DNA of 64,000 bases from Patellaria atrata CBS 101060 (Eukaryota), in contig MU006096.1 in assembly GCA_010093705.1 (NCBI GenBank), forward strand, positions 1,386,004 to 1,450,003. The letters run 5' to 3'. Under the pieces are notes generated by a model, which saw only the letters and a program-made list of their open reading frames with translations, did no database searches and was not told the DNA's origin. The translations under genes were made by a program, and so were the position numbers. Within the stretch, counting starts at the first letter, position 1, and each line of letters begins with the position of its first letter. Of this stretch, positions 55,734 to 55,973 are shown piece after piece.

Positions 55734-55973
55734 TGCTCAGAAAAGCCGATTTACTCATGCTCCATCGCCGGCTGAAGGTCCAGAGCAGCCCAAGACGGAC
55801 CGTCCTAGCCAAAAGCTCTGAAGCCAGCATTACACACATCGGATACCGTCCGGGAGACGATACCACGACGTACAACTCCACAACCAATCATCCCTGTCAA
55901 AGACAAGTCCGGTGCGGAAGGGTGGCTCGGGGAAAAAGCGTCATTGAATGGATAGACTGTTGTCATCGTCGCA
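55734..55973 (-). ncRNA. Long (~240 nt) intronic box C/D snoRNA, SNORD17-like
   Basis: C box ACGATGA (55969-55963), then CAGTCT-ATCCATTCA and D' ATGA (55944-55941). D box CTGA (55740-55737). Terminal TGC/GCA stem. The guide is complementary to LSU UGAAUGGAU. Confidence 0.72.

Follow-up and report, generated by a model that had tools for sequence, protein, structure and literature searches.

The snoRNA cluster of Patellaria atrata

The window, by which we mean the whole 64,000-nt stretch of Patellaria atrata CBS 101060 DNA analyzed here (contig MU006096.1), carries three snoRNAs on its minus strand, in the downstream order snR55-like, snR61 and an oversize box C/D RNA of the CD53 family (Table 1). 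Splice-signal words delimit putative introns at 57183-57000, 56247-56054 and 56003-55663, and each of the three snoRNAs is predicted to sit in an intron of its own. The cluster is presumably spliced and expressed in P. atrata; two sequencing runs mapped to the region, both of one study, are probably of DNA. Head to head with the snoRNA host, a few hundred bases from the snR55 intron, lies a gene with an RNase PH domain (57816-58619, plus strand, PF01138) that probably encodes an exosome subunit. An exon of a Myb-like protein (59022-59510, minus strand, PF22980) is found upstream of the cluster and an exon of an Anp1-family glycosyltransferase (53754-54518, minus strand, PF03452) downstream.

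Table 1. Features of the CD53 element and its cluster, in positions of the window
Feature	Position	Strand	Remarks
Box C/D snoRNA, orthologue of N. crassa CD53	55734..55973	-	Ends from 3-bp terminal stem
Box C	55963..55969	-	Non-consensus ACGATGA; second letter departs from RUGAUGA
Conserved 5' element	55945..55959	-	CAGTCTATCCATTCA; last 9 nt, 55953-55945, are the D' guide
Box D'	55941..55944	-	ATGA in window copy
Structured insert	55759..55940	-	182 nt
Closing stem P1 (model)	55938-55929 with 55769-55759	-	
Arm 1, closed by P2 (model)	55928-55923 with 55826-55821	-	
K-turn-like motif in arm 1	55883..55913	-	ACCG, GA, P4, GAT bulge, GA, extra base, TGGT
Hairpin P4 inside K-turn-like motif	55907-55893	-	Variable length among rows
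Arm 2 (model)	55816-55771	-	
Arm 2 apical loop C-GUYWU-G	55791..55797	-	16 of 16 rows
Single junction C	55770	-	
C'-like box	55752..55758	-	ATGAGTA
Conserved GGCTTTT ahead of box D	55741..55747	-	
Box D	55737..55740	-	CTGA
Predicted host intron of CD53	55663..56003	-	341 nt; GTACGT...GCTAAT branch at 55683...TAG; motif scan
snR61	56121..56205	-	Rfam RF00476, 57.5 bits, over gathering score
snR55-like snoRNA	57067..57141	-	RF00472, 25.7 bits, under gathering score; same position in homologous loci

The oversize RNA reads from 55973 to 55734, its predicted ends being set by a terminal stem of 3 bp (55973-55971 with 55736-55734). It has box C/D architecture, with a box C near the 5' end that departs from the consensus at one letter, CTGA near the 3' end and the terminal stem; from C to D the window copy measures 233 nt. 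The internal boxes comprise a D' box of the form NNGA, a C'-like box of the form RUGASU and an antisense element of 8-9 bp complementary to rRNA. The GC content of the insert is 57.7% as compared to 46.7% for the window. All features named in the initial annotation, i.e. boxes, guide, insert and length, were found, on the minus strand, the annotation having given none. Its C box is present as C-box-like ACGATGA, while the departure of the second letter from the consensus had been missed.

A pattern of C box and guide, derived from the element itself, occurs once in the window and in none of 100 shuffles. A 14-mer of the 5' element occurs once in the 28.7-Mb genome, in which the snoRNA is single copy. 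An Rfam scan of 2.7 kb revealed no family over the element at the gathering score or at E<=10. An archaeal sR44 match on 251 nt of the window and an lncRNA match on one homologue (L030), both from Rfam, were attributed to chance.

Homologues of the element

Scanning metagenomes with a pattern of box C plus the 14-nt element returned at least 112 loci. Among the matches listed, at least 21 are homologues, 18 of them full-length and 3 truncated, and the whole unit of 230-240 nt is conserved. The matches listed include no yeast, basidiomycete or animal locus, which carries no weight as a sign that such loci do not exist. The other 91 matches listed score at most 24.8 bits with the covariance model R1 and share the 5' motif only; the 12 of them that were inspected look unrelated. 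R1 is based on the window copy together with 15 of the 18 full-length homologues. Scores of its own members, such as the 174 bits of the window element, are circular because the model was built from these sequences. One independent held-out locus (L038) reached 90.5 bits although it is cut. The alignment (A1) contains 16 rows, the 15 homologues and the window copy, with L069, L070 and L084 left out as duplicates or near-duplicates; since the rows form only about 8 sequence groups, row counts given below overstate independence.

Guide words of snR61 or snR55 were detected upstream of 18 of the 21 homologues and of none of the 91 other loci among the matches listed; the remaining 3 homologues have at most 300 nt of upstream sequence. 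Of the 18 full-length homologues among the matches listed, 15 have a 5' splice word 31-53 nt ahead of box C. A branch word plus YAG is present 45-55 nt past box D in 11, and the other 7 have a branch word with no YAG in that range. The length from C to D is between 206 and 243 nt in all 18.

The invariance of box C and guide is partly due to construction of the pattern, in which GATGA was fixed. Conservation extends beyond the search pattern to the junction words, the apical loop, the D box and the D' dinucleotide GA: D' reads ACGA in 14 of the 16 rows, CAGA in one and ATGA in the window copy, and the D box is CTGA in every row. Box C (A1 columns 5-11) departs from RUGAUGA in 10 rows; its second letter is U in 6 rows, G in 5 and C in 2, and in 3 rows the box starts with TT, CT or AA.

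Membership in the CD53 family

Judged by its sequence, the element is a member of the published CD53 family and not a new RNA, and its orthologue in Neurospora is CD53. According to the part of the original report available to us (PMC2780460), N. crassa CD53 is a 212-nt RNA (EU780977), obtained as cDNA and positive in northern blots, which was listed as an orphan; it is located on the same chromosome as the orthologues of snR55 and snR61. When compared by eye, the window element and the CD53 sequence in supplement 1 of that report have the same 5' guide and 3' end, and they also resemble each other in junction words, K-turn-like segment, apical loop and oversize length. Homologue L019 starts almost like CD53 and aligns with the window element end to end. 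The accessible sections of a survey of the fungal snoRNAome from 2018 (Canzler et al., PMC5824354) state that CD_53 is alone among fungal C/D families in measuring 200-300 nt, a range that includes the window copy. The initial annotation had counted on conservation of the 5' element in relatives, and N. crassa CD53 and the homologues among the matches listed indeed have the whole unit.

There are differences as well. CD53 was published as intergenic, whereas the window copy and its homologues lie between splice signals in the snR55-snR61 cluster; the box C of the window copy is non-consensus; and the published description, as far as available, contains neither an insert structure nor a link to Psi-m or SNORD17.

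For CD_53 the same survey gives as best predicted site the alignment position 25S-3500, a loose prediction with an ICI of 0.71, and this is the position pseudouridylated by yeast snR86 and N. crassa ACA7 (PMC5824354, available sections). These H/ACA RNAs act on the same U but belong to another guide class, and are partners of CD53 rather than relatives. The initial annotation had overlooked that the RNA is the published Neurospora family and that its target site was already the best, if weak, prediction for it. In the literature searched, which lies mostly outside subscription journals, we found no paper linking CD53 to SNORD17 or Psi-m and no description of the fold of its insert. The accessible parts of PMC12309372, PMC8351944, PMC8789840 and PMC5062969 add nothing on a link between CD53 and SNORD17; mentions of CD53 in the first of these refer to S. 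pombe CD_531, another RNA. What is new here is the structure model and the link to SNORD17, neither of which we found in print; the gene and the weak target prediction were already published.

Structure of the insert

RNAalifold predicted 40 base pairs on the alignment, 20 of which are changed on both sides. For a core of 38 pairs, which was derived from the tested sequences themselves and in which the 4 outer pairs of P1 are poorly aligned, 89.1% of cells are paired and 23 of the 38 pairs show changes on both sides. None of 500 shuffles reached any of these measures, and controls in which the sequences were slid were 38-47% paired. The covariation analysis among fungal homologues suggested by the initial annotation thus yielded strong covariation and a conserved structure. 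In our model P1, arm 1 and arm 2 form a three-way junction.

Arm 1 contains a K-turn-like motif. A K-turn consists of a canonical stem, a 3-nt bulge, G-A and then A-G (or A-U) pairs, and a second stem. The corresponding parse fits all 16 rows, and all 4 stem pairs are changed on both sides. The C-stem has all 3 of its pairs in every one of the 16 rows, the second stem all 4 in 15 of them. The stem is followed by G or U, at position 2n, and an invariant A, and on the other side a purine-rich bulge of 3 nt precedes GA; a bulge of 3 fits every row, while no other length fits more than 7. The parse is matched by 0.15-1.3% of the shuffled segments in the case of 15 rows, and by 8% in that of L088. 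In 13 of the 16 rows one extra base is present, so the K-turn would be of a non-standard form. As to the frequently off-consensus terminal box C, the internal motif, being present in all rows, might offer an extra site that compensates.

Taken alone, the sequence of the window copy folds only slightly better than its shuffles (z -1.7). For the insert, single-sequence z-scores range from -5.5 to +0.5 across the rows, with -1.6 for the window copy, whose single-sequence fold differs from the consensus fold. We rejected this fold, in which the 5' element pairs with the insert, because the insert segment concerned changes together with P3 while the 5' element stays constant.

Two additions to the fold were observed. 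Six rows of one lineage (L017, L031, L045, L060, L062 and L115; A1 columns 36-50) have an extra small hairpin between D' and P1, and in L088 (A1 columns 71-87) a hairpin is added inside arm 1. Both leave the core fold undisturbed.

Guide and probable rRNA target

The 9-nt D' guide pairs with UGAAUGGAU in the LSU rRNA, and A55949, five bases ahead of D', lies opposite the U of GAA-U-GGA. This target sequence occurs once in the rRNA sequence from the same genome, comprising 2857 nt of LSU (possibly lacking part of its 5' region), 1799 nt of SSU and 889 nt of neighbouring rDNA. Position -1 is C in 6 rows and U in 1, which leaves 8 pairs. In the P. atrata LSU the target U has a C at -36, an A at -33, a G at -26, an A at +12 and a C at +23. 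These offsets match those of m5C2278 and Psi2314 in S. cerevisiae, m5C2241 and Psi-m2277 in Chaetomium thermophilum, and m5C3761 and Psi-m3797 in human.

The modification state of this U differs between species, as far as the available parts of the respective papers tell. Human 28S position 3797 is Psi-m at 100%, surrounded by m5C3761, Am3764, Gm3771, Am3809 and Cm3820 (PMC6182160), in agreement with the methylation claimed in the initial annotation. S. cerevisiae 2314 carries Psi only, made by snR86, with m5C2278, Am2281, Gm2288 and Cm2337 around it (PMC5699541), again as annotated for the missing 2'-O-methyl. In S. pombe mass spectrometry revealed Psi only at position 2402 (PMC4605285). A methyl at the equivalent U is reported for fly, human, mouse, frog and Dictyostelium, and not for yeast or Arabidopsis (PMC11014333, sections available). 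The methyl predicted for filamentous fungi is on record for C. thermophilum, for which m5C is given at 2241 and 2277 is listed as Psi-m, in a table where the method scores concern the pseudouridine; no guide is assigned to 2277 in the accessible part of that paper (PMC12723226).

Guides from other organisms have been assigned to the equivalent U: Drosophila snoRNA:CD20 (FBgn0086603) to fly Psi-m2692 (PMC11014333, in part) and Dictyostelium CD12/CD34, guides of ordinary size, to Um2580. Dictyostelium C/D snoRNAs all measure 66-113 nt according to the available text of PMC8817022. As ordinary-size guides methylate the same base there, methylation in itself does not require the long insert.

At -13.2 kcal/mol the duplex at the target is weak, and its energy does not single it out: a second LSU site reaches -12.5 kcal/mol and a site in the ITS-containing stretch -13.9 kcal/mol. 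The assignment of the LSU U, which we regard as well supported, rests on register, the human parallel and the measured modification, not on duplex energy. The U that the initial annotation had selected by the +5 rule agrees with the register, the unique LSU site and the equivalence of the sites, and CD53 would be the guide that places the methyl there.

Further candidate contacts were considered. For the conserved GGCTTTT before box D, no rRNA site is common to more than 5 of the 8 sequence groups, and a D-box guide was therefore rejected. By eye, GGCTTTT could pair with AGTC beside the guide, and such a pairing, if formed, may account for the short guide. Over 10 nt the insert matches LSU in only 3 of the 8 groups, which lies within chance. 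Two further rRNA-like sequences were noted. One is a lone 267-nt SSU fragment on a chromosomal contig (G000:C6:750437-750703, L119); the other, on a short contig (G000:C114, L118), is SSU-like but divergent and in fragments, and may be mitochondrial or foreign.

Comparison with vertebrate SNORD17

Human SNORD17 (HBI-43, RF00567) is about 237 nt long and has a box C, a 14-nt element and a D' box CTGA (sequence in the accessible part of PMC4395285), consistent with the 5' end and length given in the initial annotation. Its 14-nt element differs from the fungal one at one base and has the same target register; the D' guide of CD53 selects the U equivalent to human 28S 3797, the SNORD17 target. 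The two RNAs also share a short spacer between C and D', a long insert between D' and C' and a CAGUYU flank that is unpaired with the target. Viewed by eye, the human insert consists of a long stem ending in CC, an arm AAGCC...GGCU, a short linker, a G-C-closed arm, an unpaired C and GG. By eye the fungal junction resembles this plan, with a stem ending in CC, arm 1 as RAGCC...GGCU, a linker, the G-C-closed arm 2, C and GG.

On the other hand, D' is canonical in human and degenerate in the window copy, and the arms are unalignable by eye, the fungal K-turn-like motif having no counterpart seen in the human arms. The host gene is Snx5, in an intron, in mouse (PMC12955892, available part) and the snR55-snR61 cluster in fungi. 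With the Rfam SNORD17 model nothing reached E<=10, whether in the genome, where 27 of 1342 candidates were scored, in a 251-nt part of the window or in L030. The covariance search proposed in the initial annotation thus left the fungal RNA undetected. Knocking out Snord17 in mouse reduces methylation of the equivalent U, which a guide-mutant version does not restore (PMC12955892, available part).

In our judgment the element is quite probably a CD53-family box C/D snoRNA that is encoded in an intron and methylates the LSU U via its D' guide in a SNORD17-like manner. By analogy, CD53 RNA most likely works like vertebrate SNORD17.

Common origin or convergence

Compatible with this explanation, CD53 and SNORD17 may be true orthologues as long RNAs, with the insert too derived from the opisthokont ancestor, and we put the chances of this at about even. 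Both measure about 235 nt, with the very short spacer and the common flank, and their three-way junctions follow the same plan by eye. Against a common long origin stand the silence of the Rfam model at E<=10, the dissimilar arms with a K-turn-like motif seen in the fungal ones only, and the different gene contexts. The shared guide is no proof of a long ancestor, because Dictyostelium methylates the site with ordinary-size guides.

This last fact is equally the basis for convergence, in which an ancient guide of ordinary size acquired its long insert independently in Pezizomycotina and vertebrates, only the guide being homologous. We consider this a realistic, if somewhat doubtful, alternative. 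The Dictyostelium guides fall within the 66-113-nt set, Rfam similarity is undetectable, and the words in common with the human junction are short. However, CD53 is the sole oversize C/D family of fungi in the survey text available (PMC5824354) and SNORD17 is unusually long in human; that two oversize exceptions sharing target, flank and junction plan grew independently would be unlikely. The initial annotation had spoken of an opisthokont-wide snoRNA, which is not established: the Rfam model is silent, and the methyl is absent from both model yeasts and present in Dictyostelium. As a whole, we regard as tentative and rather unlikely the scenario of a single ancient and long snoRNA that filamentous fungi and animals retained and the model yeasts lost, with the insert as a protein-recruiting domain composed of the three-way junction, the conserved loop and, in fungi, a third K-turn.

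Alternative roles of the RNA

The main role of the RNA might not be methylation of this U at all: the 5' element could bind LSU at AAUGGAUGG or chaperone folding, with another snoRNA carrying out the methylation. The AAUGGAUGG site, at -12.5 kcal/mol, pairs in all 8 groups (16 of 16 rows) and takes in more of the conserved flank, but it leaves the two bases beside D' unpaired, and no published N. crassa prediction points to it in the available part of PMC2780460. The animal counterpart offers parallels in the sources accessible to us: the unusually long human SNORD17 makes many non-canonical chimeras through its insert, with CLIP chimeras mapping to the first arm (10.1101/037259), and mouse Snord17 has a methylation-independent role, its guide mutant still rescuing organoid growth, an effect the authors trace to Thoc3 (PMC12955892). 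Yet the mouse knockout does lower the methyl, and the N. crassa list, in its available part, contains no other guide for the Psi-m site. We regard such a role as improbable.

That the window copy is decaying or unexpressed, for which its non-consensus box C could be cited, is highly improbable, as it is single copy with guide, D box, helices and splice signals intact, and L060 has the same box C variant while 8 further rows have other variants.

Proposed mechanism and implications

Based on the preferred SNORD17-like reading, CD53 would be cut out of the third snoRNA-bearing intron of the snR55-snR61-CD53 host transcript, and the released RNA would bind the C/D core proteins. The D' guide would then direct Nop1 to the ribose of the U corresponding to S. 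cerevisiae 2314, C. thermophilum 2277 and human 3797, while an H/ACA guide would isomerise the same base, resulting in Psi-m. The insert could act as a protein platform in which the internal K-turn binds an extra Snu13 and, together with junction and loop, steadies the weak duplex, a proposal to which we give just short of an even chance. Such a platform would keep the particle in place on a short duplex, where the target base has to be accessible to a second guide as well. At yeast U2347 two ordinary guides compete and mixed products arise (PMC5699541), and human 3797 is fully Psi-m (PMC6182160), both as given in the parts available. A second function of the insert is plausible. If a single ancient long snoRNA were indeed behind both RNAs, the insert would either aid full double modification or carry the methylation-independent function of Snord17.

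The published orphan snoRNA gains a target that is backed by a modification recorded in a related fungus. The only oversize C/D family of fungi is tied to human SNORD17, which has disease-linked non-canonical roles and whose counterpart is absent from both model yeasts. If the link holds, Neurospora or Chaetomium could serve as genetic models for the long insert and for Psi-m formation by two guides.

Further observations on the cluster

The snR57 guide word was not found in this cluster or in 13 homologous loci. From these 14 loci it follows that CD53 may stand where yeasts carry a different third member. In the snR55-like RNA (57141-57067, minus strand) the 3' half is kept and the guide region looks diverged. 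The stretch between the snR55 and snR61 introns (56999-56248, minus strand) is about 750 nt long, compared to roughly 40-150 nt in the homologous loci. It contains two open frames of 102 and 145 codons from stop to stop; neither has a Pfam match, and one of them is also without a usable Atlas match. An additional 3' splice site is possible at 56255, followed by an exon of 7 nt. The stretch may represent an insertion, an additional large intron or a coding exon of recent origin.
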